Of a DNA stretch of 64,000 nucleotides, positions 3,712 through 58,651 are shown in pieces. A program made the translations under genes and the position numbers. Source of the DNA: a virus; IMG/VR virus record IMGVR_UViG_3300045988_078326, one strand, 5' to 3'. Below the pieces are notes generated by a model that worked only from the letters and a program-made list of their open reading frames with translations, searched no databases and had not been told where the DNA came from. Numbering within the stretch: position 1 is the stretch's first letter; each line of letters opens with the position of its first letter.

Positions 3712-5463
3712 TTGGAATATTCATTAATAAATCCAAGAAATTAGAATTATAGTGCTTTAGAGCAAGTATTAGTTAATAGGGGTATTTAGTATAATGATAT
3801 ATAGCATTATTTAACAGTATCAGAAAAAGATAATTTATCCCCCTTACTTCTCAATAACATTGAGGACGCTGCTAAATTAATTATTAAACATATTTTAAAG
3901 GACGATTCTTACATCTATATCTAGGTAGATAGCGACTGTGATGGATATACTTCTTCTGCGTTGTTATTAAACTACCTTCATGCACAATTTCCTTCGGCCA
4001 TTAACAAGTTTATTTATAACTTTCATTCTGGCAAGATTCATGGAATAAAACCAGAGTTAATCCCCGAAAATGTTTCACTTGTTATTGCGCCAGATTCTAG
4101 CTCCAATGATTATCAAGAGCATGAAGAACTAGCTAATCGCGGAATTGACGTACTGGTCATAGACCATCACTTAGCAGATAAAGTATCCGAATATGCCTGC
4201 GTTGTTAATAATCAGCTTTGCGATTATCCAACAAAATCATTATCTGGTGTAGGAGTAGTTTATAAGCTATGCCAATATATGGATAGTATTTGCGGAACCG
4301 CATATGCGGACGATTATCTTGATATTGTAGCAACTGGTCTTGTTGGAGACATGATGGATATTCGAGATTTTGAAACTCATTATCTTATCCAGTAGGGGCT
4401 ATAGAGATCGAGTCTCCGCAATCCATTTATTAAAGGTATGGCTGATAAAAATGTTTATTAGTTAGGGAAAGGAGATTTAACTCCTATAGGAGTAGCGTTC
4501 TATATTGTTCCTCTTGTTAATGCTATTACTCGTGTGGGTACTCAAGACGAAAAGTAGATTCTATTTGAAAGTATGCTTGAATGGAAAGCATATGATCTTA
4601 TTCCTTCTACTAAACGAGGATGTAAGGGACAAGAAGAAACAAGATTAGAACAAGCACTAAGAGTTTGTACTAATGTTAAAAATCGTTAGACTAGAACTAG
4701 AGATGCAGAAGTTGAATGTATAGAGAATATAATCTAGGAAAATAATCTTCTGGAGCATAAAGTTCTGGCAATTAAATTAGATAATATGTCTATTGATAGA
4801 GGTATTACTGGGTTAATTGCTAACGAGTTAATGAGTAAATATAAACGACCTGTAGTTCTTCTTTCTAAAACAGAGCATGAAGGATTGGAGGCTTGGGAAG
4901 GGTCTGCTAGAGGATATGAAAAATCTAAAATGAAAGACTTTAGATAGTTTGTTAAAGAATCAAACTTAGTATTCCTCGCCGAAGGACACGCCAATGCTTT
5001 CGGTTTTGGTATTTATGATAAAGATTTTGAAAGTTTTATTTCATGGTCAGATAAATAGCTAAAAGATATAGAATTTTCTCCAAGTTACAAGGTAGATTTT
5101 ATTTACTCTATGTCAGATATTAATTCTAAGGATATTCTCGATTTAGGCGATGCAAAATATCTTTGGGGTCAAAATATCGACGAGCCGCTTATCGCGGTGG
5201 AAAATGTTGCAGTAACAAATGATATGATTGGTCTCATGTCACGAGACAAGAATCCTACTTTGAAGATTCAATTACCAAATGGAGTTACTTGCATCAAGTT
5301 TAAATCAAGCGAAGAGGAGCTAGATAATTTATCTAGCGAATTAGGTTGCGTGAGTATAAATTTGATTGGTAAACCAGAAGTAAATAGATACTTCGGTAGT
5401 GTGACACCACAAATTATTATTACAGATTATGAAATTATAAGTAGATAGAAGTATTACTTTTAA
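3712..5463 (+). CDS. recJ: RecJ-like DHH-family single-strand DNA exonuclease
   Basis: Hand translation with TAG read as sense joins ORFs 3961..4395 and 5110..5448. DHH motif I is VDSDCDGYTSSALL, motif III is VLVIDHH, and a DHHA1-like EGHANAFGF follows. Several in-frame TAGs are present (for example 3745, 3787, 3802, 3922, 5056, 5446). Start at TTG 3712 or nearby; end at TAA 5461-5463. Confidence 0.65.
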
Positions 5464-8199: not shown

Positions 8200-11100
8200 A
8201 TGAGTTACTTTAACAATCATTCGCATACGGAGTTTAGTAACTTGCGTTTGCTTGACTGTATAAATAAACCAGAAGAGCTGATTGATAAAGCTATTGAAGT
8301 TGGATTAACGGGAATAGCTATCACGGACCACGAATCTCTCTCCGCGCATATGAGAGTAAATAAATATGCGAAAAAAATCAAAGAAACTAATCCCAGTTTT
8401 GTTATAGCTCTTGGTAATGAAATCTATCTTACAGATACTAGAGATTTAGGACAAAGATACTATCACTTTATCTTAATTGCTAAAGACGAAATTGGTTATA
8501 GGGGACTAAAGGAGTTATCTTCTATCGCCTGGATGAATGGTTATTATGATAGAAGAATGGAAAGAGTTCCTTTGCTTAAATCAGAATTAAAAGATGTAAT
8601 GCAGAGATTTAAAGGGCATATTATTGGCACTACTGCTTGTATTGGCGGTGAATTAGGTCAATCCATTTTAAATCTAAATAATTGTGAAGAAATAAAAGAT
8701 GAAGTAAACGCAAAGCGTTATCATCAACAGATTGTAGATTTTATTACTTTCTGTATAGATGTATTTGGTCAAGATGATTTTTATATTGAGTGCGCACCAG
8801 CGTCATATCCTGACCAGATTATTGCAAATAAAAGAATGTTAAAAATTGCAGAAGCGTTCTCTGTTAATATGTGTATCGGCACAGATGCCCACTATCTAAC
8901 AAAAGAAGATAGATATGTCCATAAAGCATATTTAAATTCTAAGGGCGGAGAAAGAGAAGTCGATAGCTTCTATGAATTTACTCGTCTTATGGACGAAACT
9001 GAAACTAGAGAATTACTTCGTTTGAGCTATGAAGATAATATTATTGATTGGATTTTTAATTGCTCAAACGAGATTAAAGATAAAATAGAATTTTACTCTC
9101 TGGAAAAGCATCAGTCTATTCCAGAAGTAGAAGTAACTGATTACCCTCCTACTGCATGGTGGGGAACTAACAATGATTATGCAGATGAAATGTCTAAGTA
9201 TCCAATCCTAAAATCACTTTTCACTTCCGATAATATTCAAGAGCGTTATTGGATAAATGAATGCTGGAAAGCGCTAGAAGCAAAAGGTATTGATTGGATT
9301 GATAGACCAGAATATCCAGAAAGACTTGAAGAAGAAGCAAGAGTAAAGAGAGTGATTGGAGAGAAATTACAAACTTGTATGTTCGCTTATCCAAATACAT
9401 TAAAACACTATGTTGATTTGTTTTGGGATTGCGGAAGTACGGTAGGTGCGGGTCGAGGTTCGGCTTGTGCAGCTCTTAATCATTATCTTCTTGGAATTAC
9501 TCAGCTGGATCCAATCGAATGGGATCTTCCTTTCTGGAGATATATCAATGACAAAAGAACAGAACTTGGAGATATTGATTTGGACTTGGCTCCATCTAAG
9601 ATTCAAAAAATCTTTGCTGAAATCAGAAAAGAACGAGGAGAATTAGGGCTAGTCCAAGTATGTACCTTCGGAACTGAGGGAACTAAATCTGCCATATTGA
9701 CAGCCTGTAGAGGTTATAGATCTGACGATTATCCAGAAGGTATTGATGTTGATATGGCTCAATATATGAGTTCCCTAATTCCGCAGGAAAGAGGCTTCTT
9801 GTGGCCCATTGAGGACGTCGTTAATGGAAACCCAGAAAAGGGACGTAAAGCAGTTACTACATTTGTAAATACTGTAAATCAATATCCCGGTCTTCTAGAT
9901 ATTATTACTAGAATTCAAGGGCTTGTAAATAAACGTTCTAGTCATGCATCCGGCGTTATTTTGTTTGATGAAAATATTTTCGACAGTGCCGCAGTTATGA
10001 GAACACCAAAGGGTGCATTAATTACTCAATGGGATTTGCATGACCAAGAGGCTGCTGGTTCTGTTAAGTATGACTTTCTCTTAACAGCAGTTCAAGATAT
10101 TATTATCCAAGCTGTTGAATTACTACAAGAAGATGGAGTTATCGAAAAAGATTTAACTTTAAGAGAAGTATATAATAAATATCTTCATCCATCTGTCTTG
10201 CCTCAAGATGATAAAAAAATGTGGGATGCTTTAGCTAATGGTGATGTTCTTGGATGTTTCCAATTTGACTCAAGCGTTGGTGCACAAGCCGCGAAGAAGA
10301 TTAAACCTCAAAATCCGCATGAGATGGCTGACGCGAATGGATTGATGCGCCTAATGACTTCCGAAAAAGGTGCTGAAACTCCAATGGAGAAGTATGTTCG
10401 ATTTAAGAATAATATTTCTCTTTGGTATCAAGAAATGGACAGAGAAGGATTAACAAAAGAAGAACAAAGGATTCTCGAACCGCATTTCTTACGTTCTTAT
10501 GGTGTTCCTCCTAGCCAAGAACAAATGATGACCATGTTACAAGACGAGAATATCTGCGGATTTACTCTTGAAGAAGCGAATGCTGCAAGAAAAATTGTTG
10601 GTAAAAAGCAAATGAATAAAATCCCAGAACTTAAAGAAAAGGTCTTAAACTCTGCGAAATCTCCCGCGTTAGGACATTATGTCTGGACTTATGGCATCGG
10701 CCCGCAAATGGGTTATTCGTTCAGTATTATCCATGCTCTTGCTTATAGTTTTGTTGGTATGCAAACTCTGTATCTTGCTACTCATTTTAATCCGGTATAT
10801 TGGAATACGGCGTATCTGATTGTAAATAGTGGTGCTATTGATGAAGAAGAAGGAGAACAATCAGATTATACAAAGATTGCAAAAGCAATAGGAGAAATTC
10901 GTAATGCAGGAATTAAGGTTTCCCTTGTGGATATTAATAATTCTGACTTTGGATTTAAGCCAGATGTAAAAAATAACTAGATTCTTTTCGGATTAAAGGG
11001 TTTGTCAAATGTTAATAATGAACTGATAAAAACTATTGTAGATAATCGACCCTATGTATCTCTTGTTGATTTCTATAACAGAGTTCATCCTAATAAACAA

Positions 11101-12102
11101 GCAATGATTTCTTTAATTAAAGGTGGAGGATTCGACCAGTTTAGTTCACGTATGGAGGCTATGATTCAATATATATGGATTACCTGCGATAAGAAAAAGA
11201 GAATTACTTTACAAAACCTTCCTGGGTTAATGAGATATGATCTTATCCCCTATGAAGAAAAGTTTGTGATGCCGAAAAGAGTGTATGAATTTAATAGGTA
11301 TCTAAAAGCAGAGTGTAAAGATCCTTACAATGTAGCAAAATATAAACTCGACGAAAGAGCAATCACCTTTCTCGTTGAAATTGATTGCGAGGATCTATTG
11401 GAAACAGATAATCTAGCATGGTATATTGACATAAAAGCCTGGGATAAAATTTATCAAAGTTACATGGACGTATTTAGAAATTGGATCTCTGAAAATAAAG
11501 AAACGATTTTAGATAATTTAAACACCACCATCTTTATGGAAGATTGGAAAAAGTATGCTTCAGGGAACATATCTTCTTGGGAAATGGAATCTCTATGTTT
11601 TTATTATCACGACCATGAGCTAGCGAATATTAACAATAGCAAATATGGATTTGTAGACTTCTTTAGCCTTCCAGAAGAACCTCAAGTAGATAAAGTATTT
11701 AAAAAAGGTGCTTCTTTAATTCCTATTTATAAACTGCATAAAATCTGCGGGACGTGCATTGCAAAAAATAAGGTGAAGAGTACTGTATATCTTCTTACAA
11801 CAACTGGAGTAGTAGCAGTTAAATTCAGACAAGAATACTTTGCTTTGTTTGATAAACAAACCTTCCAAAGAAACGCAGATGGAACAAAGAGAGTTGTAGA
11901 GAAGTCTTGGTTTAATAGAGGTAATATGATTGTTGTGCAAGGGATTAGACGAGGCGATGAATTTGTAACAAAGAAATATGCAAGTTCTGGAGGCCATCAA
12001 CTTTATCACATTGATGAAATTATCAATGGAACAGATCTAATCTTGAGAAGCGAAAGAAAACAAGGAGAAGATGAAGATGAAGATAGTAGCATTAATGGGT
12101 GA
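8200..12102 (+). CDS. dnaE: DNA polymerase III alpha subunit (DnaE-type), about 1300 aa
   Basis: ORF 8200..10980 has a PHP domain at the N-terminus, plus a polymerase core. It ends at TAG 10978-10980, and the same frame continues as ORF 11002..12102, which encodes the HhH/OB C-terminal region (ILFGLKGLSNVNNELIKTIVDNRPYVSLVDFYNRV...LIKGGGFDQF). It is therefore one gene with a sense TAG. Confidence 0.85.
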
Positions 12103-12622
12103 AGCAGGAAGCGGTAAGGATACTATTCTCCATAGAATTATGGAGAAGTATCCTTCCTATTTCAATGAAATTATTAGTTGTACGACTCGACCTCCTAGGC
12201 AGGGAGAGAAAGAAGGAGTTAATTATCACTTCTTATCCGTTGAAGATTTTATTAGAAAAATCTTAAATGGAGATATGCTAGAGGCTACTGAATTTAATGG
12301 TTGGCACTATGGAACAGATAGTCAAAGTCTAACAATAGATAAGATAAATATAGGAGTATTTAATCCAGAAGGAGTTAGATGCTTACAGGAAGATGAAAAC
12401 ATTGAACTGTATGTATTTTATGTGCGGGCCGCGGGTAAGTAGCGTCTTTTAAGATAGCTGAATAGAGAAGAAAATCCTGATGTAGACGAAATAATTAGAA
12501 GATACAAAGCGGATACAGAAGATTTTAGTTTTCTTAATGATATAAAATATATAACTCTTTAGAACAATACCTTAGATGATATTGATATAGCTGTTGATAC
12601 TATATTTGGACAATTCTATTAA
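12071..12622 (+). CDS. gmk: guanylate kinase-like nucleoside-monophosphate kinase
   Basis: P-loop GEAGSGKDT and motif SCTTRPPRQGEKEGVNYHF. The frame continues through three TAGs (12440, 12452, 12560) to TAA 12620-12622, giving a typical guanylate-kinase C-terminus. Confidence 0.65.
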
Positions 12623-12679
12623 ATAATTATATTAGAAATCACAATATATAGTGTTCAACAAAAAATATATTACAAGGAG

Positions 12680-14869
12680 TTGTATTATATGTTACAAATA
12701 AAGAAAAGAAATGGTATAGTAGTTCCATTTGATAGAGAACGAATTATCAACGCTATCAATAAAGCCTTCATCGAAGTAGATGGAGAATTATATGAAGATG
12801 ATACTGCAAATGATATTGCAGATGAAATTAAGTATGCAGTAAAAACTTCTGACGATGTGGTTTCTGTAGAAAAAATTCAAGACATGGTGGAAGATTTTCT
12901 TATGAAGTCTGAGCGGAGAGACGTTGCTAAAGCATACATTAGATATAGATATAAAAGAGAAATTGCCAGAAAAGGGCAAGACGATTTTATGAAAGCCTTT
13001 TCTGCCAAAGTGCAGGGTTCAGATATAGAGAATCAAAATGCTAATGTTGATGAAATGTCATTCGGCGGAAGAGTTGGTGCAGCTTCTGATTTGCAAATGA
13101 AGAAGTACGCTCTTGATTATCTTGTATCTAATAAATCACGCGCAAACCATGAGAATAATGAGATTTATATTCATGACTTAAATGCTTATGCAGTAGGTAT
13201 GCATAACTGTCTTTCTATTCCTTTTGATGATTTGCTTGCAAAAGGATTCAATACAAGACAAACTGATGTACGACCAGCGGGTTCAGTAAATACAGCTTTT
13301 CAACTTGTTGCTGTAATCTTTCAGCTTCAAAGTTTACAGCAGTTTGGTGGCGTTTCTGCTACACATCTTGATTGGACTATGATTCCTTATGTAAGAAAAA
13401 GTTTCTATAAACATTATATGGATGGATTGACATATATCGAACAAGTCATTAGCATGGATGATAGATTAAATAATCAACTGTCTATTGAAGATCCTATCTA
13501 TAAGGAATTTAAAGGCGCATATTCATATGCTATCGCTATGACAGAAAAGGAAGTTCATCAAGCGGTTGAGGGAATGTATCATAATCTAAATACTCTTCAA
13601 TCTCGTTCCGGCAATCAACTTCCATTTACTTCTATTAACTATGGAACTTGTACTCTTCCAGAAGGAAGAATGGTTACTAAAGCTCTTCTGGAAGTCTCTA
13701 TTGAAGGACTTGGTAGACTTCACAAGACTTCAATTTTCCCCTGTGGAATTTTCCAATGTATGAAAGGTGTAAATAGGAAGCCTGGAGATCCAAATTACGA
13801 TTTATTTAGATTAGCATTAAAGTCTACTGCCACTAGATTATATCCTAATTATGCTAATGTAGATTGGTCTGGCAATGCCGGATATGATGTAAACGATCCA
13901 AGTACATATTTCTCTACAATGGGATGTAGAACTGCTAATGGATTCGATATTAACGGCTTAAAGCAACAGAAAGACGGTAGAGGAAATATCTGTCCTGTTA
14001 CTATTATAATGCCAACAATAGCAATGGAAGCTAATGGTGACGTAGAAACTTTTATGAAACTTTTAGATATTAAGATCGAAGAAGCGAAAGATATGCTTCT
14101 TGAAAGATTTGAATATATCTGTGCGCAACCTGCGGATTCGGCAAAATTCATGTATGAAAATGGCTTAATGGCTGGATATGATGGAATTTCTACTCGAAGT
14201 GCTTTACAACATGGCACATTGAGTCTTGGGCAGATTGGATTGGCAGAAACTTTACAAATTCTTATTGGATGTGATCATACTGAGCCAGAGGGCATGAAAT
14301 TAGCAAAAAGAATAGAGCAGTTATTTAAAGATAGATGCGCAGAGTATAAAGAAAAATATAGACTTAATTTCGGAGTATATTATACTCCAGCCGAGAATCT
14401 TTGCTATACCTCTCTTAAAAAATTCCGTGATAAGTATGGTATCATTCCTAATGTAAGCGATAGAGAGTTCTTTACTAATTCTATGCACGTACCAGTATGG
14501 CACCAACTCTCTCCATTTGATAAAATTGATATTGAAAGTCAATTAACTGGATATTCTTCTGCTGGTTGTATTACTTATGTTGAGTTAGATACTGGCATGG
14601 AAAAGAATATTGATGCTATGGAGACATTAGTAAATTATGCTATGGATAAAGATATTCCATACTTTGCAATAAATGTTCCATGTGACACCTGCCTAAATTG
14701 CGGATATACTGGCGAGTTTAATGATAAGTGCCCTCAGTGCGGTAGTAAAGAAATTCAACAGTTAAGAAGGGTAACAGGCTATCTAACTGGTAACTACAAG
14801 ACCGCCTTTAATAAAGGAAAGCAGGATGAAGTAAACAATAGAGTTAAACATGTGGGGTATATGGAATGA
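12680..14869 (+). CDS. nrdD: anaerobic ribonucleoside-triphosphate reductase NrdD (class III)
   Basis: 729 aa with an N-terminal ATP-cone. The C-terminal zinc ribbon is CDTCLNCGYTGEFNDKCPQCGS, and the glycyl-radical motif is RRVTGYL. The real start is probably ATG 12689 after an AAGGAG RBS. No TAG codons. Confidence 0.85.
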   Translation: MYYMLQIKKRNGIVVPFDRERIINAINKAFIEVDGELYEDDTANDIADEIKYAVKTSDDVVSVEKIQDMVEDFLMKSERRDVAKAYIRYRYKREIARKGQDDFMKAFSAKVQGSDIENQNANVDEMSFGGRVGAASDLQMKKYALDYLVSNKSRANHENNEIYIHDLNAYAVGMHNCLSIPFDDLLAKGFNTRQTDVRPAGSVNTAFQLVAVIFQLQSLQQFGGVSATHLDWTMIPYVRKSFYKHYMDGLTYIEQVISMDDRLNNQLSIEDPIYKEFKGAYSYAIAMTEKEVHQAVEGMYHNLNTLQSRSGNQLPFTSINYGTCTLPEGRMVTKALLEVSIEGLGRLHKTSIFPCGIFQCMKGVNRKPGDPNYDLFRLALKSTATRLYPNYANVDWSGNAGYDVNDPSTYFSTMGCRTANGFDINGLKQQKDGRGNICPVTIIMPTIAMEANGDVETFMKLLDIKIEEAKDMLLERFEYICAQPADSAKFMYENGLMAGYDGISTRSALQHGTLSLGQIGLAETLQILIGCDHTEPEGMKLAKRIEQLFKDRCAEYKEKYRLNFGVYYTPAENLCYTSLKKFRDKYGIIPNVSDREFFTNSMHVPVWHQLSPFDKIDIESQLTGYSSAGCITYVELDTGMEKNIDAMETLVNYAMDKDIPYFAINVPCDTCLNCGYTGEFNDKCPQCGSKEIQQLRRVTGYLTGNYKTAFNKGKQDEVNNRVKHVGYME

Positions 14870-23951: not shown

Positions 23952-24267
23952 AAAATTTCTCCTTTCATTTTTAAAAAAGTACACTTTACTGAACTTGGTC
24001 AAACATATATAATCAATCTATACTCTTTTTCAAGTATATTTGAAAAGAGTAAGATACTCACTTTTGGGAAAAGGGTTTCTTACCCTTTTCCCAATTTTTT
24101 GTTATCTAGGAAGAAAAAGTATTTTTCCTGTTAAAAAGTGTACTTTTTCTCGGAAATTGTTTATGGCTTTCTAAAAGACTGGAGCGAAGATCGCTTCCAT
24201 CCTCGACCTTCTATCTAGTAGTTTAGATTTGTTTGAAACAATAGCTAGATAGAAGGAGGTAAATAAT
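23952..24267. promoter_or_regulatory. divergent control region between the minus-strand fibre/lysis unit and the + strand retroelement island
   Basis: Direct repeats aaaagtacacttt (about 23977) and aaaagtgtacttttt (about 24133). Perfect hairpin gggaaaagggt/acccttttccc (24066-24092) followed by a T6 run. Inverted repeat ctatctag...ctagatag (24211-24254). RBS GAAGGAGG before the target gene. Confidence 0.4.
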
Positions 24268-26034
24268 TTGCCTAAATGTATTTTAGCTGAATAGGGTGGA
24301 AAAGGTGGAGGTTCTCTTTCTCTTGTAAAAATTGAAGTAACCACTCCCCCTACTAAAACGAGCTATCTTGCTGGTGATACTTTTAATCCCGCGGGAATGG
24401 TAGTCACCGCATCTTACGGCGTGGACGGCGTTATTGTAACAACAGCAGAAGTAACTGGGTATCAAGTTACTCCAAACCCTTTAACTGATGGGGTTACTAA
24501 AGTAACAATTACTTACTCTGAATCAGGAGAAACTTGTTAGACCACTCAAGACATTACTGTTATTCATAAACTTCTTAGTATTTAGGTTACTACTAACCCA
24601 ACTAAGACAACTTATGAATATGGAGACACTCTCCAAACAACAGGAATGGTAGTTACAGCAAGTTATTCTGATAGTACATCATCCGCGGTTACCGGGTATA
24701 GTTGCTCTCCAACGTCATTAACTGCGGTTGGCACCTAGAAAATTACTGTTTCTTACACAGAAAATGGAGTAACTCAGTCTGCTTCTTTCAATGTTACTGT
24801 TGAAAGAAAATCGGTGCCGAAACCAACATGGAAGAATAATCTTACCTATACTGGTAGTAGCCAATCAGTAAGTGGTGCTTCCTATTGGAATAACTTTAAT
24901 ACCACTTATATGACGATTGGCGGGACAACTTCCGCGACTAACGCTGGAACCTATACTGCTACTTTCACACTAAATAGTAATTATAGATGGGCCGATGGAA
25001 CTACATCAAATCTTGATGTAAACTGGACTATCAATAAAGCTGCTGGGACTTTAACAGTAAGTCCAACTTCTGTAGCTCTTGATGGAGATAACTATAGTGC
25101 AGGCGTAAAAGTTACTATTACCCGTCCTGGAGATGGAGCTATTAGTTATAGCCCAACTAGCGTTTCTGGCTTAACTTTATCTTTAAGTGGGAACGTTCTT
25201 ACAATTAAAGGCGACGGTAGTACAGCTATTTCTTCTACAACTATTACTATCAAGGTTGCAGCAGGAACTAACTATACGGCTCCAAGTAATAAAACTGTTA
25301 CAGTAACAGCTAGCTATTGGGAGTGGGGATCTGAAACTGCTGTTGGTGATGCTAAATGGTGGGCTGGATTAAAAACATGGGCCGCTAAGGCATCATCTGG
25401 AGAGCGACAAAATTGCGTAGGTAAGACTAAAAGAGTAAGTTTATCATCTTCTGTTTTAGGTGGTAATCAAGTATTAATGAGATGCGTTGGCGCAGATTAG
25501 GATGGAACAGGAACTTTAGCTTTTAATGCTGTCTCCGCTCTTCCTAATTCTACAGATTTTGGTAGCAATGCAATATGGATTGGATCAACTGCTAGAGATC
25601 TATGTCAAGATTTCTATAACCGCTGTAGCGCGAAAGATTCTATTAAGACAGTAAAGAAGGGTACTTGTCCTAGTACAAATAGCTCTAGAAATGGTTCTGT
25701 AACCTATAATGATGAAACAGTATTCTTATTATCCGAAAGAGAATACGGATTAGATTCTTACTCTCCTATCTCCACTTCAAACAGTACTACCTCTAAAGCA
25801 GAGTGTACTCAAGGTTATAATGCTGCGTATAGTTACTACACAAGCAACTCTAGAAGGGTTATGTACTTAGGAGATGCAAACGGTAATCCAACTAGCTCAT
25901 ATGTGTATCAATGGGAGAGGTCCCGTTACTACAACTACTCGTACAACGTTTGCTATGTCGACACCGATGGTTCTGCGAACTACACCGGCTACAACATCAG
26001 CCGTGGGCTCGCGCCGGCTTTCGTTATCGGATAA
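24268..26034 (+). CDS. retroelement target protein: Ig-like (Big) repeats plus C-terminal C-type-lectin-fold domain carrying the variable repeat
   Basis: TTG 24268 after GAAGGAGG. The frame is continuous through sense TAGs (24292, 24538, 24583, 24736, 25498) and contains ORF 24814..25500. Repeated domains read VTT(N)PTKT.Y..GDT....GMVVTASY. The C-terminus ...ECTQGYNAAYSYYTSNSRRVMYLGD...YNYSYNVCYVDTDGSANYTGYNISRGLAPAFVIG ends with TAA at 26032-26034. Confidence 0.8.
25919..26017 (+). repeat. retroelement variable repeat
   Basis: 99 bp aligned without gaps to the template repeat. All 14 mismatches lie at template adenines. Ends in the GC-rich box gggctcgcgccgg, 15 nt before the target stop. 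Confidence 0.9.
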
Positions 26035-26115
26035 CACAATAAAATAACAATTCGGGACAGTTAAGATTAAATTGTCCAACTAAAATTTTATATATTCAAG
26101 TGAGGGAGATTTTAA

Positions 26116-26610
26116 ATGTCTGTAAAAGTAAAAGATAGACACATATCAAAGCAAGATTGTCTTTATAAAGCACGCGACTTAATGGGATATATTTTAGTCT
26201 TAACTCGTCCTAGAGAATATGATAAGGATGGAAAACAAATTTGTAAGCCTGGACTGCTTGGAGAGGGTCAACCTCTTCAAGCGTTCGGGTACGATATAAT
26301 TAAGTGCGGAAAGGGCTTACATGCTTGCTGTTATGAGGCATGTAAGATAAACTTGAAAGACAAAGAAACCCTTGCAAAGAGAAATGACTATCATAATAAA
26401 GCACTAGAATATTGTGATAGTATATTTCGACAAATCGACCTATGTATTTATTAGTATGCTCAGAACAGCAAAAAGAAAAGACGCTCTTTTGAACATCTAG
26501 CTAGATTGACAAAGAGAGTAAAAGAGTCAATCCAAGATAGAAAAAATAGAGATAAACTTATAACAGAGCATAGATATTCAGCTCCTAAGAGATATAGGAG
26601 AGGTCGATAA
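26116..26610 (+). CDS. avd: putative accessory variability determinant (Avd-like)
   Basis: About 164 aa from ORF 26116..26454 extended through sense TAG 26452-26454 to TAA 26608-26610. Basic C-terminus. It sits between the target and template repeat, as avd does in canonical cassettes. Sequence similarity to Avd is not clear by eye. Confidence 0.35.
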
Positions 26611-26641
26611 TATTTTTCTACGGTTAAGTTCTGTATCTTTC

Positions 26642-26740
26642 GGTCCCGTAACTACAACAACTCGAACAACGTTTGCAATGTCAACAACGATGGATCTGCG
26701 AACAACAACAACTACAACAACAGCAATGGGCTCGCGCCGG
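26642..26740 (+). repeat. retroelement template repeat
   Basis: ggtcccgtaactacaacaactcgaacaacgtttgcaatgtcaacaacgatggatctgcgaacaacaacaactacaacaacagcaatgggctcgcgccgg. It is AAC-rich, and the variable repeat differs only where this repeat has A. Confidence 0.9.
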
Positions 26741-27051
26741 ATTAGATGGAGCTATCATGTTGCGAGTTAAGCTGCGGAGCAGCGCAAACGAGCAACGCCT
26801 AAATAGTACCCCGGAGTATATTATTATCCATCTAATTAAGGTTTACTCTGGATTGCACTCACTTTATGTGGGGAAGAGATTGAGAGACCATTAAAGAGCT
26901 TTGCTCTACAACTATCGAATAATATACTATAGGTAGATCTGCCTTTTCATCTAAGGAGAACTTAACCATTTCACTGAAAAAGTGGATAAAGTAAGACTGT
27001 AGACGTGGAGCTCGAGTAGCTACCACTATAGCTACATGATAAGGAGAAAGT

Positions 27052-28176
27052 ATGTCTGAAATAAAACAAGATACTGCTTTCGAGCGTTTTTGTAGTTTTG
27101 ACGCTATGTATGAGGCGTCTTATAAGGTATGTCGAAACGTTCGATGGAAAGATAGTACAATTAATTTTGGAGAGAATAGGATAGAAACAATTTTAAAAAC
27201 AGAAGCTGACCTGCGAGCGTGTGAATACGAACAGCTTGTGTTTAGTTGTTTTTCGATAATCGAACGAGGCAAACCAAGAGATATAAGAGCGTGTCATATC
27301 AACGACAGACTGGTACAAAATGCGTTATGTGAACAAGTTTTGCTACCAGAATTAACTCCTAGATTTATCTATGATAATTGTGCAACCCTAAAAGGAAAGG
27401 GAATAGACTTCGCTCTGGAAAGAGTTAAGAAACATCTCCAATAGGCTCATAAAGAGTATGGGTTAGGAAAAGATTTTTATGGATTAAGAATTGATATACA
27501 GAAATATTTTGATTCTATTGACCATGAATCTTTAAAGAAAGCAGCTAAACGGCTAATAAAAGATAAACTTGTTTATTAGTTATGTTGTTACTTGATAGAT
27601 ACATTTTCTTTTAAGCTAACAAAAGACACTTCGCCTATACCCGGTAAAATATATTACACAAGTAAGCGACACAAGTATGAAAGAGTTAATGTTACTCATT
27701 TCTAGCCTGGTCGTAAGTATTATGAATATGAAAGAAAGAGCCTGGGATTAGGAAGTCAAACGTCACAATTATTCGCATTGCTAGCATTGAACGAAATTGA
27801 CCACTTCATAAAAGAAGAGTTACATATTAAGTATTATGGTCGTTATATGGATGATTTATACTTGCTCCATAATGACAGTAAATACTTGGCCGAATGTGAG
27901 AAACAAATAGAAATTCGCTTAAATAAACAAGGATTAAAGATGAATAAGAAGAAAACTACTATCACTAGAATTTCTCCTATTCACGCAGATGGCGAACGCC
28001 ACGCTCCTTTTAAATATTTAAAGTGGAATTTTCATCTCACAGAAACTAATCATATAATACAACTTCCTTTCAAGAAAAAAGTAGCTCATCAGCGCAGAAA
28101 ACTAAAGAAAATGTAGGCTTTATGGTTAGATAATAAAATTTCAACTGAAGAAGTTTAGAAATCTTATTAGGGCTGA
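27052..28176 (+). CDS. retroelement reverse transcriptase
   Basis: ORFs 27052..27444 and 27778..28116 share a frame and are joined through sense TAGs. Reverse-transcriptase motifs 1-2 sit in the N-terminal part, plus YYGRYMDDLYLL (YMDD). It continues past TAG 28114 to TGA 28174-28176. RBS AAGGAGA. A hairpin gtagcta/tagctac lies just upstream. Confidence 0.85.
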
Positions 28177-28268
28177 AGGGCGCATATTTCTAAAGGAACT
28201 TGCTTTTATATAATTCAGGACATGGACAATTATTTTCGTTCATTATTCAAAGGAGTTGAAATAAAGTA

Positions 28269-28931
28269 ATGTATATTCTATTAAATAGAGAGAATATAGT
28301 AGTTGATATTCTTTCAGAAGCACGTTACATTAAACTGCAATCCTCAAATGGTATTGTCGTTGCCTGCGAGGAAGAAGAGGGAACTGGGGTTATCGGCTCA
28401 GATAGTGATACTCATTACACTCTAGTCAAAGCCGATGTATTAAATCAACCTAATGCTGTTACAGTATTAGAGTTGGAAACAATTCCATCAAACGTCATTC
28501 CTAACTATTCAAAGTATAATCAAGAAGATGGTACTTTCATCGCTGATTTAGATTAGGCAAAATATGATAAACAAGAGGAAAACAAGAAACTATTCGCAGA
28601 GTATCTTGCTACCCACCCGTTAACTTGGGTCGATGGAAAAGAATATGGAATTACGTAGGAGGACCAATCTGAGATTAGCTTAAATCTCAATCAATTCTAG
28701 GTGGCTGTAGCTGCTGAAGTAGAAAATCCTACGCTTGAGTGGCACGCTCGACACGAAGAGTGTGTACCATGGACTTTAGAGCAATTATCCGCTCTAAGTT
28801 TAGCTATTTCTAATGCGGTATATCCAAAATACCACTTAATGCAAGAATATAAAACCTAGATATTTGGAGCTAATTCAATAGATGAATTAAAAGCTATTGA
28901 ATTGAGTTATGAAGACACAGACAGCGAATAA
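28269..28931 (+). CDS. hypothetical protein
   Basis: ORF 28269..28556 continues through several sense TAGs to TAA 28929-28931 (about 220 aa). Confidence 0.4.
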
Positions 28932-42624: not shown

Positions 42625-42657
42625 GAATAATAGGGGAGATTTTCTCCCCTATTATTC
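42625..42657 (-). other. stable stem-loop at the 3' end of the tape-measure gene
   Basis: 15-bp perfect inverted repeat gaataataggggaga/tctcccctattattc with a 3-nt loop. It overlaps the tape-measure stop codon and has no adjacent U-run. Confidence 0.35.
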
Positions 42658-45600
42658 TTTTCTTCTATTCGCCCATTGAGTAGCATCATCCGCCAAACTA
42701 CGAATAGCATCTTGAATTTCATCAGAAGATGTCGCATTGGGGAATTCAACTCGTTCAATATTTATATTTGGCTAAACCACATTATCTGTCGGCGCAATCT
42801 AGGTATTAGTTCCCAATCTAGATGCCATAATACTAGAAATAGATAATGCATTTCCATCAAGAGTTTTCTCAATAGAGGCTATAAAACTAGGTCCAAAGGC
42901 TCTCATAGCAGAGACCGCCGCCAAGATATTTTTCGTATCCTCTTGATTTAAAACTAGCTCTTTTTCATGCAAGAAAGCTAATTTAGCATTATCAAATTCT
43001 CCGGTATATCCTCCAGTATCGAAACCACTTATCTAACTTTCTTTTAGCCATCCATAGGCAGAATTATTAGACTGCACATGGATTGGATATGGTCTACCCT
43101 TAGCTATATTTGTTATTCTAACCTTTTTACCTGGACCACGTCTACCAGCAGGATCAGTACCATAAGAGTCATGATAATAAGTTCCGCCAATATAAGTAAC
43201 TTCGTCTCCTACTTCGGGGATTCCATTACCCCCTCCGGTTCCACTGCTAGAAGACCCACTACCACTATTACCTGAGTTACCTTTATCAGTATCAGAAGAT
43301 TGACTTGAATCAGAAGAAGGTAAGTCATCTTTATCTATACTTCCTGCACTTTCTATTGTGCTACCAGCAGCTCTAGCGGCTTCTTCAAGCGCTCTTATAT
43401 ATTCTCTGACTGAATCGGCCATATCTAAATACTCTTGACTTAAATCTTGAATAGTGCTTATCTATTCTAACATCTAAGTAACGGCATTTGATCCAGCCTC
43501 AGAGCACAAATCAGTAGAAGTTGAAACATCGTCGATATAATCTTTTAAATCATCGAGACTTGTTCCAGTCTAATCGGCTACTCCAGAAACAGTAGTTTGA
43601 TAATCTTCCATCGCTCCGCTAGCTTCATCCATTGCATTAGATAAAAACTCTTCAAAGTTACCAGCATTAGCGGTCATATTGGCTAAGTCTTTCGCAAATA
43701 CATTATCAAATAGGTCAATAAGTTTTGTATTACTTCCTACTATATCTTGAATCTACTCGTTATCTGATAGTAACAAATCAATAATGCTAGAGCCAGAGTT
43801 AGCTATAATATCTTGAATTTCTTGACTTGTAATTCCAGTTAGGTCACTTACCTCGTCTCCCGCAACAATAGCCATATCAATTAAAGCTTTATTGCCGGCT
43901 TCGGTCATATCCTAAATAGCGATCTATTTTTCGTTCTCTAGGTCCTTAACCTTCTGCGTATAATAAGAATAGATTTCTTGCGCGCGGGCAGATCTTTCTT
44001 CATCAGTCAAGGTCATATCAGAATAGATTTCTTTTATCTTATCTTGACATTCTTGCCAAGTAGAAATAATCTCTCCTGTAACATCCTCTACCTACTGCTT
44101 TGCTATATTATACCACTCATTCTCCGCATCAAGCAAATTCTATTCTGCGTCAGCTATCTGGCTCGCATCTGCGGTGTATTGATAATTCCAGTTACCTTGA
44201 CTATCTCTCACTAGTCTAAGTTGATTTTTCGCATTTTGAGCATCTTCAAGTGCCATCTAAGCCTAAAGAACATTATACTTAGCTTCGAGAATTTCTAAAT
44301 CGTATTCAGATAAGGTATTGTTCTCTCTACGTATATCAATTTCCTCTTGTAGCTATTTTAACTAATCTTTCATCTTAGAGTTAGTAGCCTTATCAATATC
44401 CTGTTGTAGTTTATTATACCAAGAAGATACCTCATACGCTTCATTTACTTTATCTAAATATCTATCCTCTTGCTCGATATAATGATCAAACTTGTCTTGT
44501 AGTAGATCTAATCCTACTCCGCCAGAAACAGCCTATCCAAATTCATATACTGCTCTCTCAATAGCTTGAGTATACATCTCCTAGGCAGTTTCCATAGCGG
44601 CTTGCGCAGAACTTAACATAGCCTCTTGTGCTTCATTATATTCTTCTAGTAGAGCATCTCTATTAGCTTTTAGACCATCATATGCAGGATCCGTTTCATC
44701 TCCGCCTAATGCGTCTAGTGCAGCTTGAGCTTCCAATAGTTCTTGACGGATTCCATCGTACCATTGTTTATTTAGCTGCGCATTGGCGACCTGAGCCTTC
44801 ATAGTTTCTTCGCTTACTTCCTGAAGCTACTCAAATCCTTCCTCAGTCTTATATGTAACTCCCTAAAGAGCATATAGTTCTTTGATAAGTCCTAGAACGG
44901 ATTCATTATGGTCAAGCTAATCAGTAAAAGCTGCAAATCTTTCTGACGCGGCATCTAATGCATCTGGTAGCATTTCTTCAAGACCTTCTACCCAATCAAG
45001 CAAAGCTTCCGCAGTAGAAATCATTTTACCTTGCAAGTCAGATAACTTGCTTACAATCTCATCAATATTAGTCGCATCTGTGGCATTAGCTAATTCTTCC
45101 TGATAACTTTTAAGGGCTTCTTCATAGCTCTTGATGATTTCCTTATTCTCATTCATACTGTTTTCATCAATACGAGCGACTTCCATTCCATGAGTTAGTT
45201 CATCACCAAAAGATTCTGCTATTTGTCTTGTTAGCTCATTAACCGCATCTTTAGCATCTTTTATATCTATTGCAACTTCAAGTTTATATTCAATCTAATT
45301 TAATCTATTATCTGCAATATTTCTTTCTAGCTCTTCTTGCTCATCTTTTACATCTTGAATCTTGTCAAGAGTTTCTTCATATTGAGCTAAAGCGTCCTAA
45401 CGAGCCTAGAATAATTCATCAGCAACTTCTTTTTGTAATTGCCAACTATCATATTCTGCCTATCTAGCCTCCTATTCATCTTTAGTAAGACTGCTAAACA
45501 TTAATAAGAAAGCGTTGTAATCGGTTAAGAAGTTATTATTATAATCATCAACAATAGATTGAAGAACGTCTTGATAACCTTCAATTTCTCCATTTTCATC

Positions 45601-48600
45601 AAAAGTAAGAGAATTGTTGAATAATCCTTGAAGGTCTGATCTATCTTTCTCAAGATAGGTCTCAGCCTCATCAAGCATCTTATTATAATTAGCTTGCTGT
45701 TTTTCTAACTCTTGAAGCTCTTTCTAATAAGCCTATAATTTCTTCGCTCCATATGCTCTATCTATATTATTACCAATATCATCTAATAAATTATTCTAAT
45801 TCTCAATCTCACGAGTTATTTCATGGTATCTATCTTCTATATCTTCAAGAGTTTTTTCATCTTCGGCATCATATTTTGTACCTTCGTTATCTCCGCCAGA
45901 ATCTTTATTTCTAATATTGTCTGTTGCTATTCTATTCGGATCTAATGCTCCATCAGGATCAAATGCAAATGGCTCCTAACCATAATCAAAAATACCATTC
46001 TATCCAGATCCCGTACCCTAAGAAGATAAATATGAACCAGCTTCTTTTAGAGCATTAGTAAAATTACCAATAGCATCTCCGCCCTCGCCGGAAATTTTTA
46101 ATCCTAGAGTGGGAAGCTCAAAAGGAAGATCCGCTTTGCCAGCTAGCCAATCATCTATCTATAATTTTCCCCATGATTTTACATATGGAGTAAAACCTAA
46201 ATCATATTCAAAATTAGAAATTAAATCTCCTAGTGCTGTTAGAACAGCCCCAGCCGCCTATGAAGTTGAGCTAATTGTATTAGCACTCTCGGACATAGTA
46301 GAATTAATAACGGCTCCAGCGATACTAGCATCAGTGGACATTGCTTGCATTAAAGCATCGGCGCTTGTATCTAGTCCATTTGCTAGCGTTATTCCCTAAT
46401 CAAGAACACCCTAGAGAATCCTTTTATAAGATTCGTTATTAGTCTATTCTAGTCCTACGAGCTATTGTCCAATACTTGATACCATTGCCTAAAATTCTGT
46501 CGCAGTAGTATCGAAATTATTATCAATGGTAAAATCTATCGCTCCAAAGCTATCAGCATAGTTTAATAAGTAATCGTAATTATCTACTAAACTATTTACA
46601 ATTCCCATCATGTCTTGGGCATCGCTCACTTGTTTTTCCCAAGTATTTAAATTAGATATATCAGACATGGTTCTGGCATATTCTTCCTCAGAAATTGTAG
46701 TTTGATCTACTCCATCTTTGAGTTCCCAAACTCCGTCTGTATTTTTTGTAATATTCTAATTTAATTTAGACTAAGCCGTAATTAATGCTTTCGTGGCAGC
46801 GATTGTTCCCTCATAGTAATCATCCATATTGATGGTTCCAGATTTAAACTTTTTATTTAAATCTATCAGTCCATCCCCTATAGACCCGGTTGCAGCGACC
46901 AAAGTAGCTTCATATAAATCAGTTTCTTCTATATTATCGTCAATTTCTTCGTTTAATCTATGAAAGCCTGCATTTATATTACTTAATCTTTTATTAATCG
47001 TATCAAAATATTCTTGGGCAGATATTGCCCCCTCCTGATACGCTTTCGCATTATCACTAAGGGCCTATGTTCTCTCTTTAAACAATTCTACATCAGTTTC
47101 ACTTGTAAACGTATAATCATTTATTGCATTTGAATCACTGGCTCGCGATACTAATTCATCCCACATATTAATATAATTCTAGAGATAATCAGTATTTACC
47201 CCATATTTTTCTTTCATAGATTCTATTGTAGCATCAAGAATTTGCTCTTCTTGTCGTTCAGAATCTAAAAATGTCTAAAGAGACTAATTTGTTAGTTTAT
47301 ACGCATCTCCAACTTTAACAATATACTAAGCATATCTTTCATCTGCATTAATGAGTTCTTGAACTTGATCCATGGTTAGATAGCCTTCTTGATCCTTATA
47401 TGACTATAAGGCAGATTCAAGAGCACTCTAACTATTATTTAATTCTTCCAATATAGATTTTAAGTCGTCTATTCCCTTTACATTTATATTTATTTCATTA
47501 ATTTTATAATTATCTAAAAATTCCTATAATTCTTCAACCGTATCAAAATTATCTATATTGACATCCATAAGGATTTCCCAATCCTCATTTGATAGAGAAT
47601 CAAAATCAAAATCACTAAATTTACTTTCTACTTTTTCCTTTGCTTCATCTACTCTGCTATCTACAAAAGTTAAAAACTCATCTACGCTGACTCCAGCTAA
47701 CATTAATTCATTTTTAATGGATTCTGTTATCAAACCAGAGGCTGCACTAATATCACTACTAGCCAAAGTGCTATAAAGCTAAGTAGAAATCTATTTAACT
47801 GATTGGTTATCTAAAATTGGTTTTAATATAACCTCTTCATATTCACTTTGACTGCCATAAAGATTTTTACGAATAAGAGATAACTGCTCCTGCATTGAAG
47901 CTATCATTTCTGGATTATACTCAATAACCCCGTCAGTAACAGATTTAATATATGCAGCATAATCATCTTCTGCTTGCTATATAGCTTCAGAATTGTCAGT
48001 TACCCACTGTGCCGTAATCTATTCATTTTGAGTAACCCAATCTTGATACTCTACTAAGTAATCACGATAGGCATCAGAATTTTTATCAAGGCCCTAAGTA
48101 ATACTATTAAACCAAGTGTCTGCATCTACGTACTAATCTTTATAAGTATATCTATTCTATTCAAGTACAGATTGAGCATTTGGATCATTTAAATCCATGC
48201 TCTATTCTAACTCTTTAAACCAGTCCTAGTCTCCATTGTATTCATTCCAACTTCTCCACTAGGTTAAATCTGGTCCTCCTGCCAAACTCTTAGTAGATTT
48301 ATCATAATTCTCTTCGATAGTTTTTGCCTAGGCTTTTTGCGCTTCTTCTGTTAACTTCTCTTGTAACTCAACCTATCTCTACAAAGAAGATTCTGCCTAT
48401 TTAAGTTTTTCTAATTCTTCTTGTTCGACTATACTTAAAGAATCCTAATTATTTAATTCTTCTATTCTATCTTTCGTTGTCTATAATTCAGAATTTAAAG
48501 ATTCTAATGCAGATTTCTAATCCTCATAAGCCTAGGTAGCATTAGATATTTTTTCTCTAGCCTCTTCTTCCGTAACAATAATGAGAGAAATAACATTAAC

Positions 48601-51351
48601 AAGTAAGGTTACTCCCAAAGTGATTAACCCAATAAGTGGTAAAGCAGTTGAGATAGCCGCACCAACAGTAGTAATACCAGCAGCCGCAGTTTTAGCTGAA
48701 GCTCCAACTGTTAAATACGATATTGCAGTTAAACTATTTTGTAATGCCTGCTTTTTAAACAAGGTAGAGATTGTTGGTAATAACATTCCAAAGTTAGTAA
48801 GAATAACTGTAAAATCTTCAACAGTAAACTCTCCCTCTTTCACAGAATTTGTAAAAGTAGAGAACATGGAATTAATACTTGTCATTCCCATTGTAACTTG
48901 CGATAAAGTGGTTCCTACTTTAACCAATGTCTCAGCCCAGTCTAAAGTAGCATATCTGTTATTCTTTAACCCCTCACTAATTTCTTTTGTTTTCTACTGT
49001 AATAATTCTAATCCCTATCTAAAAGCCTCAGCACTAATTTCATTATTCTTAAAAGCTGCTACAAGACCACTTAGATCATTTTTAAATTTAACAGAACCAT
49101 CACCTAAAGAAGTAATAACTCTATTTAATGCAGCAACGTCTGATTCTGCCCCCTTTAATGCTTCCTAAAACTACTAAGAGGTAGTAAGATATTCTATTAT
49201 CTCCTAATTTGTTGCATCTTGAGCACCTTCAAAAAGATTTAGGCTTCTTACTAAATTAATAGTTTCTTGAGAGATTTCATTGGTTCCAGAACCAACTAAT
49301 TTCTATACTTGCTAAAACTTAGAAAGACTTACGCTCGCCACTTTTAATTTGTCAATTAAACTCTAAAGGGCTTGCTAATTTGTCTTTGAACTATAGAGAA
49401 TTTCTGTTTCTATGTCCTCATAAAAAGAAAATTTATTTTCATCTTCTAACACAAGCGCCGATAGTAGATTATCCTTCCATTTTTTATTGGGAACTAAACG
49501 CTCAGACAAACTATTTGTATAAGCTGTAATAAGTTCATCTGATTTGCTAACCTACTACCCAATTAAATTAACCTATGTCTATAAAACCTTTACTCTATCT
49601 AAATCTTGTTGTAAAATACCAGCCTAGCGCTCAGATAGTTGTGTGGCCGCAGCGGACGCTTCTCCTTCAAGCTAAACAATCTAAGCTTGAGTATTTACCA
49701 TCTATCCCTAAATAGTATTATCAAGTGCGGATTTCGCGATAATATCAGCCATCTATGCGGCTTCAGTTCTCAAAGTTTGCGCTCTATCCTTTTCTCTCTA
49801 TCCGATAATACCAAGATTAGAAGCAATATCTCTCATTCCTTGCGCAATCTTATCACCAAAAGCCTTATTCATCAGTAAAGCAGTTGTTGCTAAAACGCCA
49901 GACATTCCGCCTAAACCATCAATAATATCAGCAGTTGTACTTAAAATAGGACTAAGAACATCATCTACCCCAATATAAAAATCAGGATTTATTAAACTAT
50001 CATAAATATCTTCCGCGGATGCTCTTACTCTATCTCTTGCCGCCTCCCAAGATTCAGCATAAATATCTGCTTGTTCTTGTAGAGATCCTTCTGCTCCATA
50101 AGAACTCTCCAAATTTTCCTAGAAGAAATCCCAGTTATCCATAAGAGCAATAAGACGAGTATATTGACGTACTCCAGCTACAGTCTGTGCTAATGCAATC
50201 TATTGATCATTAGATAGAGTTTCCCATTTCTCTCCCATTTCATCTAATAAAGTATCCATAGTCTTGATTTCTCCATTAACGTCAAAGATGTTAATTCCAA
50301 CTTTATCAAGAGCCTAAGAATATTTATTTAGAGTAGTTCCATCATCAAGTGTTTCTCCAAGATTTAAGCCCTGAATACGTGCAAATAATGTTCTAAATGC
50401 AGTACCTACAGTATTCGCAGATTCACGAGTTGTAGCAGTAACAGTAGCAAGCGCAGATGCGGCATACTCATAACTCAAACCTACCGTCTCTGCAACTGCG
50501 GCAAACTGCTAGATACCTTCTGAAATTTCATCAGAGCTTGATGCAGTATCTGCACCTAAGCGCACCATGACGTCTGCATAATACTCAAGACTTTTACTTC
50601 CATCATAGAAGTTATTCCATACCGCAGTTAACTAGTCAGATGCAGTCTAAGCGCTAACACCCGCGGCGTTTGCCATTTTTATAGTAGTTTCAGTTCTATC
50701 TAAAACTTCCTACTCAGTAAGGCCCTACTGATAGTAAATCAGAGCTGCGTCAGTATAATCTACTGTAGTTGTACTCAATGCCTTAGCTGCTTCGTTAGCC
50801 TACTTAGCAAAAACAGCCATATCCTCGGCAGAATTTTCAGTAACTATACGAATGTTTGTCAGAGATTCATTTAAATCTTTTGCATAACCATAAGCTGTCT
50901 CTAAAGAGCCAATAAAACCCTATAAAGTGCTTGCTGTAATCTACCAACGAACCGTATTTTTCATTGTAATCCACAAATCAGACATTAACTTATTAGTTCT
51001 GATTAACGGAGTTTCCGCCGCCATAATAGCCTGAGAAAGATTTAAGAATGTTTCTTGCCCCTAAATTCCCAGTTTGCTTAGTTGATTATAATAGTCTGTT
51101 AAAGTCTTTCCGCTTTTTACTAAACTATCATTAAAAGCAGTCAAATCTAACTTACCTGAATTTCCATTAGTAGCCATCTAAAGATTACGGCTCAATTCAA
51201 GGGCCGCCAAAGATGCCTACTGAAGTTCACTAGAAATAGATGGCTAATTGCCTAATTTCTATAAACTATTTATAACTTCATTAACAGAGGTTTTTAGCTG
51301 ACTCGCGTCAGCGGTAAACCCAATCTAATAGTTTAATCTTTTATTAGCCAC
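42652..51351 (-). CDS. tape measure protein (about 2900 aa) with a C-terminal globular domain
   Basis: GTG 51349-51351 after AAAGGAGGAAAAGGACT. Seven ORF fragments (49798..50112, 48532..48927, 47524..47766, 45472..45678, 44917..45186, 44581..44802, 43033..43422) all lie in the same frame and are joined by sense TAGs. It is a coiled-coil-rich protein with TM-like segments. The C-terminal region is ...VTYIGGTYYHDSYGTDPAGRRGPGKKVRITN... Ends at TAA 42652-42654. Confidence 0.6.
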
Positions 51352-58646: not shown

Positions 58647-58651
58647 TAAAT

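Follow-up and report, generated by a model that had tools for sequence, protein, structure and literature searches.

A 64,000-nucleotide stretch of viral DNA (IMG/VR record IMGVR_UViG_3300045988_078326; hereafter the window) carries at positions 24268-28269 of its plus strand what is very probably a canonical diversity-generating retroelement (DGR), in a phage that has fully reassigned the stop codon TAG to glutamine and in which the sense TAGs of the element are ordinary glutamine codons. The order along the strand is a target gene, an Avd-like gene, a template repeat (TR), a structured spacer RNA and a reverse transcriptase (RT), with a variable repeat (VR) inside the target. A first-pass annotation of this DNA had treated the TAGs as a recoded dialect of the retroelement itself that ties retrohoming to the supply of a suppressor, and had proposed an interplay between adenine mutagenesis and the recoded stop codon. 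The components of the element are as follows.

24268..26034, + strand: DGR target gene, 588 aa, start TTG at 24268, stop TAA
25919..26018, + strand: VR, last ~33 codons of the target, with a GC box GGGCTCGCGCCGG resembling an initiation of mutagenic homing (IMH) site at 26005-26017
26116..26610, + strand: Avd-like accessory gene, 164 aa, basic C-terminus, one sense TAG at 26452 (codon 113)
26642..26741, + strand: TR, non-coding, 35 A in 99 nt, IMH*-like box at 26728-26740
26742..27051, + strand: TR-RT spacer, structured non-coding RNA as predicted by RNAalifold from 9 diverse relatives
27052..28269, + strand: DGR reverse transcriptase, 405 codons, start ATG at 27052, stop TAA at 28267-28269
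28174..28176, + strand: in-frame TGA at the RT Trp375 codon, private to the window

The two repeats belong to a 102-nt direct repeat (25919-26020 versus 26642-26743) that is 85% identical. All 15 mismatches between TR and VR in the window fall at adenines of the TR, an outcome with a chance probability of ~1.7e-7 given its adenine content, and a repeat pair with adenine-only mismatches is the signature of a DGR. The same 13-nt GC box closes both VR and TR, and the sequences diverge straight after it.

The proteins encoded around the repeats agree with this assignment. Translation of the target starts 8 nt downstream of the ribosome-binding site AAGGAGG (24253-24259), and Pfam recognizes in the product Ig-like Big_3 domains (E 2.8e-12) and a C-terminal DUF6273 domain (residues 432-587, E 3.3e-11) that contains the VR. 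DGR targets with DUF6273 are already known, and the domain resembles C-type lectins (PMC11792537, PMC10743442); this resemblance is taken purely from the literature (PMC10743442). The RT matches Pfam RVT_1 (E 1.8e-16), carries the GxxxSQ motif as GSQTSQ (residues 234-239) and YMDD at residues 265-268, and among proteins of solved structure has its best sequence match in the Bordetella DGR RT (8ub7_A, E 8e-14). It has 1071 homologues, many of them also 405 aa long, and its TAA stop overlaps the ATG of the next gene in a tight TAATG junction. The product of 26116-26610 has no family match in Pfam, NCBIfam or PHROG. A structure model of a 92%-identical database homologue, used in place of the window sequence itself, predicts a confident four-helix bundle (pLDDT 88); we therefore call this protein Avd-like on the basis of its predicted fold, its position and its charge, helical bundles being a common fold.

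The spacer between TR and RT is predicted to form a long-range helix (26742-26751 with 26945-26954) and two hairpins (26759-26796 and 26998-27036). Across the nine relatives 92.5% of cells are paired, as opposed to 34-49% in slid controls, and there are compensatory changes at 21 pairs versus 4-8 in the controls; the observed values were reached by 0 of 500 shuffles. The 5' strand of the long-range helix is the family-invariant GAUUAGAU, whose partner CAUCUAAGG lies ~200 nt downstream. An in-frame TAG that the first-pass annotation had correctly placed just beyond the 13-nt box (26743-26745) falls inside GAUUAGAU and pairs with the partner strand; it is thus part of an RNA helix strand and not a codon. 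No Rfam family matches the spacer, which may correspond to the spacer RNA that Bordetella phage BPP-1 requires for priming.

Turnover of the variable repeat and codons of the template

Evidence for activity comes from comparison with closely related genomes. The family is abundant enough that the exact sequence of a neighbouring 152-aa protein occurs in 1158 blocks of the assembly index. Over the 1.4 kb that precede the VR, ten fetched genomes are 99.4-99.9% identical to the window; one was left out of the VR comparison because a 3-nt indel breaks the alignment register. The VRs of the remaining nine are mutually different, and each differs from the TR at 10-20 positions with no difference at a non-adenine. 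Taken together, the window and the nine in-register genomes have 160 of 160 mismatches at TR adenines. Only 26 sites in 17.7 kb distinguish the window from its nearest relative, L007, and 16 of these lie in the VR. One of the 16, 26004, matches a private C-to-T change of the TR at 26727 that turns AAC into AAT; every relative has C at both positions, which indicates that the window's own TR was copied into the VR after the TR had mutated. Judged from these sequences, the element is active in the population. Such turnover of the VR also implies that a TAG-containing RT functions in vivo, which constitutes further evidence that UAG is decoded.

Read in the frame of the target, the TR is composed of 15 AAY codons (13 AAC and two AAT), two TAC, two GAT, AGC, GGA and adenine-free codons, with a possible protein diversity from its mutagenesis of ~4.5e20. 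Full enumeration of the codons that can be reached by adenine substitution yields no TAA, TAG or TGA, and the same is true of 12 distinct TRs found at 20 related loci. The expectation that AAC codons cannot mutate to TAG is therefore correct, and extends to AAT. The proposed interplay between mutagenesis and the recoded stop is refuted by this enumeration, as no stop is reachable under either genetic code. For example, the suggested passage from TAC to TAG would require a C-to-G change at a non-adenine position of the TR, and none of the 160 mismatches is at such a position.

The TR indeed contains no TAG in the target frame, yet the significance once attached to this absence is not borne out. 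Chance alone would leave a repeat of 33 codons free of TAG with a probability of 0.57 if the TAG rate is that of the whole window and 0.75 if it is that of the target, and the TR is untranslated, so that a TAG-free TR was rejected as a design feature. We also considered a relaxation of stop avoidance in the TRs of recoded phages, visible as AAG, AAA or similar codons, and found none at the 20 loci. The mutagenesis is independent of the genetic code and the classical stop-proof AAY design of the TR is unrelaxed; it is kept even where a TAG would be harmless.

TAG as a glutamine codon

When TAG is read as a sense codon, open reading frames (ORFs) of 100 aa or more occupy 78 kb instead of 36 kb, and the longest ORF grows from 931 to ~2900 codons. 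Within 57 ORFs of the window, which were called by hand and not by a gene caller, there are 347 sense TAGs that make up 38% of glutamine codons (1.70 per 100 codons). These ORFs are terminated by TAA in 45 cases and by TGA in 12, with TAG terminating none.

The identity of the inserted amino acid is indicated by the codons that replace TAG. Of 65 distinct exchanges of TAG for another codon between the whole window and close relatives, 50 lead to CAA (29) or CAG (21). A comparison of the RT with that of an 89%-identical relative, L001, involves eight codons that are TAG in one or both genomes, of which five are exchanges between TAG and CAA or CAG, one is an exchange between TAG and AAG, and only one is TAG in both, a fast turnover of sites. 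The swaps with CAA or CAG include the invariant Q61 and the near-invariant Q347, and across seven lineages TAG occurs at invariant glutamine positions that include Q236 and Q239, the two glutamines of the hallmark GxxxSQ motif. A relative that uses the standard code has glutamine at RT positions where recoded lineages have TAG. The long variable arm of one tRNA(CUA) described below prompted us to consider serine, leucine or tyrosine as the meaning of TAG; these were rejected on the exchange spectrum (glutamine 50, serine 2, tyrosine 1 and leucine 0 of 65), and are also disfavored because the acceptor stem of that tRNA is glutamine-like.

Positions of the TAGs in the DGR genes were for the most part described correctly in the first-pass annotation. 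The target has exactly five in frame (24292, 24538, 24583, 24736 and 25498), in keeping with the five or more that had been claimed, with an extra TAG at 24250 lying upstream of the ribosome-binding site and outside the gene. As had been stated, the Avd-like ORF runs through the TAG at 26452. At least six had been claimed for the RT, which has exactly six (27442, 27577, 27703, 28114, 28156 and 28168); five of the six coordinates offered were right, and the sixth, 27568, should read 27577. The target has its first TAG at codon 9, the Avd-like gene at codon 113 out of 164 and the RT at codon 131, ahead of YMDD. All three proteins are colinear with full-length homologues and show no frameshift, including the target, whose homologue in L001 has its TAGs exchanged with glutamine or lysine codons. 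The TAGs are thus genuinely in frame, contrary to the possibility raised in the first-pass annotation that they might fall outside their reading frames.

The reassignment has to be weighed against the view that the sense TAGs are artefacts, arising from fragmented pseudogenes or frameshift-compensated ORFs in a genome that uses the standard code. It is true that translation table 11 breaks the region into short ORFs. Nonetheless, hundreds of full-length homologues align colinearly and without gaps, the 405 codons of the RT contain no TAA where ~14 are expected from base composition, and a single ORF of 2899 codons contains 104 TAGs with no TAA or TGA. Additionally, TAG occupies invariant glutamine positions and exchanges with CAA and CAG, and the turnover of the VR shows that the system works. 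We consider there to be next to no chance that the TAGs are artefacts, a reading that the homology and population data have already refuted.

A candidate decoder was found in related lineages. The IMG/VR contig 3300045988_084596, whose RT is 91% identical to that of the window, has a cluster of tRNA genes in the order Ser(UGA), tRNA(CUA), Leu(CAA), Cys(GCA) located ~37 kb upstream, among ORFs that are mostly TAG-free, and the same Ser-Sup-Leu-Cys order recurs in a second lineage represented by an ENA contig of 147,161 bp. The tRNA(CUA) exists in two forms, one of 76 nt (L135:1677-1752) and one of 91 nt (L193:4407-4497); the longer form, that of the ENA contig lineage, has a hairpin of ~15 nt inserted in its variable region. 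The two forms share a U1-U72 mismatch and G73, features that would confer a glutamine-like identity if they act as they do in E. coli tRNA-Gln. Next to the cluster (L135:3785-8176, L193:6001-10355) are genes for a DUF2828/DUF7788 protein and a protein of ~800 aa that matches MVP_shoulder, the shoulder domain of the major vault protein, a pairing that is unusual for a phage.

The private TGA and regulatory readings of the TAGs

The RT had been taken to end at 28176. That position closes a TGA that stands in place of the Trp375 codon, beyond which the conserved ORF extends as far as the TAA at 28267-28269. Trp375 is at least 90% conserved in an alignment of 20 RT sequences, and codon 375 is TGG in all 11 fetched relatives (L001-L011). 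In 35 of 39 IMG/VR loci there is a tryptophan at the motif and no in-frame TGA; of the other four, L178 and L179 were not matched by the motif pattern and have no in-frame TGA or TAA, and L172 and L173 are frameshifted. Outside the VR just 10 differences separate the window from L007 over 17.7 kb, the TGA at 28174 being one of them. Since TGA terminates ORFs in this genome, the RT of this copy is most likely truncated, probably by 31 residues, which bears on its current activity and not on its membership in the DGR family. The TGA represents either a knock-out of very recent date or an error of assembly. The element in this copy may just have been inactivated, following at least one retrohoming event that copied the private TR mutation into the VR. 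Other disrupted RTs were also observed: L145 (3501-4715) has R55 changed to TGA, and L172 and L173 have one extra A in a run of A that shifts the frame. Loss of the RT seems to be recurrent in the family.

UGA is the leakiest of the bacterial stop codons and can be misread by tRNA-Trp. The TGA at 28174 might then be read through or decoded as tryptophan to give a full-length RT, possibly in attenuated amounts, from an element that is still active. The 30 residues that follow the TGA are identical to those of homologue P0001 and include 13 invariant positions, the RT ORF ends in the tight TAATG junction with the next gene, and the presence of the private TR variant in the VR indicates that the element worked recently. 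However, the TGA is private to the window, so that conservation downstream of it reflects only how recent the change is. TGA is also a working terminator that ends 12 of the 57 ORFs, and loss of the RT has been reported for a recoded DGR (bioRxiv 10.1101/2023.08.07.552389), as well as being evident from the clearly disruptive lesions of L145, L172 and L173. A reassignment of TGA as a second sense codon was rejected on several grounds: a number of the ORFs that end in TGA do so in ATGA overlaps, all 49 relatives that are readable at position 375 have TGG and none has TGA there, and the related tRNA clusters contain no tRNA(UCA). Read-through at 28174 is thus improbable, and a truncated RT remains the preferred reading.

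A separate question is whether the TAGs were selected as a regulatory device, as the first-pass annotation implied, with retrohoming coupled to the phase of infection in which the suppressor tRNA is present or with the DGR kept silent in the lysogen. A number of observations agree with this. None of the three DGR protein genes lacks a TAG, be it in the window or in its ~99%-identical relatives, the TAG at codon 113 of the Avd-like gene is kept in L001, and the RT has at least one TAG in every recoded relative examined. Additionally, the tRNA(CUA) is located among mostly TAG-free ORFs, a nearby serine recombinase and M78 peptidase hint at a temperate lifestyle, and a model for late-gene gating has been published for recoded phages. 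However, the DGR genes do not exceed the genome average in TAG density, with 0.85 per 100 codons in the target, 0.61 in the Avd-like gene and 1.49 in the RT versus 1.70 window-wide. An enrichment of TAG in the DGR was considered and rejected, as 12 TAGs in 1156 codons versus 335 in 19242 elsewhere corresponds to an odds ratio of 0.59 (p = 0.08). The positions of the TAGs are also unconserved, given the single RT site shared with L001, and their number in the RT drifts from 0 to 17 among relatives, the RT with none being that of the standard-code relative. Some relatives have a target with no TAG at all, and the standard-code relative runs the same DGR without any. Most ORFs of the window are equally dependent on decoding of UAG, so that there is nothing specific to retrohoming. 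A selected device is consequently unlikely. Diversification would indeed depend on decoding of UAG, as RT, Avd-like gene and target are each interrupted by TAG, but the window shares this dependence across most of its ORFs, and the idea that the dialect is a peculiarity of the DGR does not hold where TAG is glutamine genome-wide and the DGR genes are if anything poorer in it. We conclude that the DGR TAGs merely follow the genome's code and are no retroelement-specific feature.

The standard-code-like relative referred to above (L169 / L051, IMGVR_UViG_3300045988_145614) has no TAG in either RT or target, and its ORF space is unchanged by reading TAG as sense. Its DGR is of the same type, with 20 mismatches at adenines and one at a non-adenine position.

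A bolder version of the regulatory idea would regard the TAGs as a time-lock that restricts hypermutation to late infection or to induced as opposed to lysogenic cells, with the recurrent RT knock-outs resulting from selection to stop the mutator. RT and Avd would in that case be made only after the phage tRNA(CUA) had accumulated, and the W375 stop, the R55 stop and the frameshift would represent a mutator that is switched off once a good receptor-binding variant has been found. We think this somewhat less likely even than a selected device in general.

Our preferred reading, in which the TAGs are ordinary glutamine codons, leads to the following proposal, with the steps of mutagenesis modeled on the BPP-1 paradigm. 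An RNA comprising TR and spacer would be reverse-transcribed by an RT-Avd complex with misincorporation opposite adenines, and the resulting cDNA would replace the VR at the target gene's 3' end, rewriting the 15 AAY and five other adenine-containing codons of the DUF6273 domain. There would be no functional RT, Avd or target until UAG is decoded, most likely by a phage-encoded glutamine-like tRNA(CUA) such as that in the TAG-poor early region of related genomes. Expression of the DGR proteins would thus be gated in the same manner as that of most late genes.

Several points weigh against this interpretation. A tRNA scan and an Rfam search of the window returned no tRNA and no Rfam match, and the flanks of relatives contain no suppressor tRNA over ~30 kb upstream and ~6 kb downstream; a suppressor tRNA(CUA) in the window's own genome is presumed from its presence in related lineages. 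Timing of expression, interaction of RT with Avd, priming by the spacer RNA and retrohoming itself are likewise presumed to proceed as in BPP-1. A BPP-1-like hairpin or cruciform 3' of the VR was looked for and rejected, the only candidate being an 8-bp stem ~35 nt downstream of the VR that is no better than those of shuffled sequences (z = -0.13). Finally, instead of a fixed mutation, the TGA at 28174 could represent a minority allele or an error of sequencing or assembly.

Related systems and genomic context

The element resembles the BPP-1 DGR (mtd-avd-TR-brt) in its overall organization. In both, the target is followed by a small basic four-helix-bundle accessory protein, the TR, the spacer and the RT, and both share adenine-specific mismatches between TR and VR, an AAY-rich TR, a VR at the C-terminus of a lectin-type domain, a GC-rich IMH-like box that ends both repeats and a structured RNA downstream of the TR. 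There are also clear differences. The RT of the window is 405 aa long and has an insertion of ~65 residues relative to bRT, its accessory protein shows no similarity to Avd families that can be detected from sequence, its target is composed of Big_3 and DUF6273 instead of Mtd, there is no clear hairpin after the VR, and all three proteins contain sense TAGs.

Recoded DGRs have been described in other phages. Analysis of code-15 phages that persist in the infant gut by Lou et al. has described that their RT has multiple in-frame TAGs and adjoins a recoded tail-protein target whose VR changes over time or among samples, and that RT function was lost in some lineages by a 502-nt deletion (bioRxiv 10.1101/2023.08.07.552389). 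Those phages are ~100 kb in size with one assigned to Bacteroides, whereas the window derives from a phage of ~147 kb that is SPbeta/Phass-like and probably infects Bacillota, and the probable loss of its RT is by a point nonsense change and not by a deletion. In Zeta crAss-like phages, seven RT genes require amber suppression, GxxxSQ is present and the targets are C-lectin tail-fibre proteins (PMC12386605). These differ in being Crassvirales with Bacteroidota hosts, in most cases without Avd, and have no close sequence relation to the window; the best RT matches in phage databases are at most 35% identical to the RT studied here.

DUF6273 targets of DGRs are known from Faecalibacterium prophages, where the VR is at the C-terminal end of the domain, and from phages nd4 and nd12 (PMC11792537, PMC10743442). 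The window agrees with the Faecalibacterium prophages in this respect, whereas target1 of nd4/nd12 has an N-terminal DUF6273 and a VR near the gene's 5' end. Ig-like domains accompany DUF6273, as in the window. RT identity to this group is ~27-35%, with phage nd12 having the closest RT in GenBank (35% identity). The Faecalibacterium prophages and nd4/nd12 are small (33-60 kb), and recoding is not mentioned for them.

The closest named phage is Phass-1, whose YonB-family homologue is 51% identical to that of the window, a distant relation with no megablast match. A published description of phAss-1 (Phassvirus) reports a genome of ~136 kb, recoding of TAG to glutamine in structural genes and tRNA-Sup(CTA) genes, and sets the phage against Spbetavirus genomes in a similarity matrix (PMC10607447). 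The same paper makes no mention of a DGR or a reverse transcriptase (PMC10607447), and a megablast search of the DGR cassette against GenBank phages returned no match. A DGR whose RT is recoded and contains TAG is therefore already known, and is encountered here in a phage lineage for which we found no description of a DGR. The element opens no new mechanism and is a tidy but unsurprising example, although it does offer a clean natural demonstration that a TAG-containing RT functions in vivo. Its value is mainly for annotation, since gene callers and DGR finders running on table 11 will shatter the RT, the Avd-like gene and the target, and will miss a very widespread gut-phage DGR.

The genome to which the window belongs is that of a ~147-kb SPbeta/Phass-like tailed phage, probably of Bacillota, from human metagenomes, with the Pfam families YorH, YorF, YonB, YonD, YonG and YomU/V/W marking it as SPbeta-like. 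Matches among GTDB genomes were only to stand-alone contigs of ~148 kb in metagenome-assembled genomes of Oscillospiraceae and Eubacterium, with no integration junction. Usage of TAG is uneven along the window. In most tail and other late genes it accounts for 40-79% of glutamine codons, whereas the primase, DnaE polymerase, NrdD, YonB-family protein and YomU-like tail tube have at most one TAG. Late genes rich in TAG and replication genes poor in it fit the published model of late-gene recoding. The two abundant structural proteins, namely the tail tube and the YonB-family protein that we take to be the major capsid protein, avoid TAG inside the late block. The corresponding features, together with the gene downstream of the RT, are as follows.

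53550-54944, 58089-60448, 2325-3428 and 8200-14869: TAG-free or nearly TAG-free genes (YomU-like tail tube, YonB-family protein, primase, DnaE, NrdD)
28269..28931, + strand: co-oriented gene downstream of the RT, 220 aa, 4 sense TAGs, weak tail-fibre / DUF4376 similarity; context and not a proven part of the DGR

Similarity of the downstream product is to Pfam DUF4376 (E 2.6e-4, which falls short of the curated cutoff) and to the tail fiber family phrog_1348 (E 1.4e-4). Elsewhere in the window, the 2899-codon ORF with its 104 sense TAGs lies on the minus strand at 42652-51351 and is tape-measure-like, with PhageMin_Tail recognized in the relative L014. Finally, two plus-strand ORFs at 3421-3705 and 3712-5463 are in the same frame and are split by a TGA and two codons, the second of them containing 13 TAGs.

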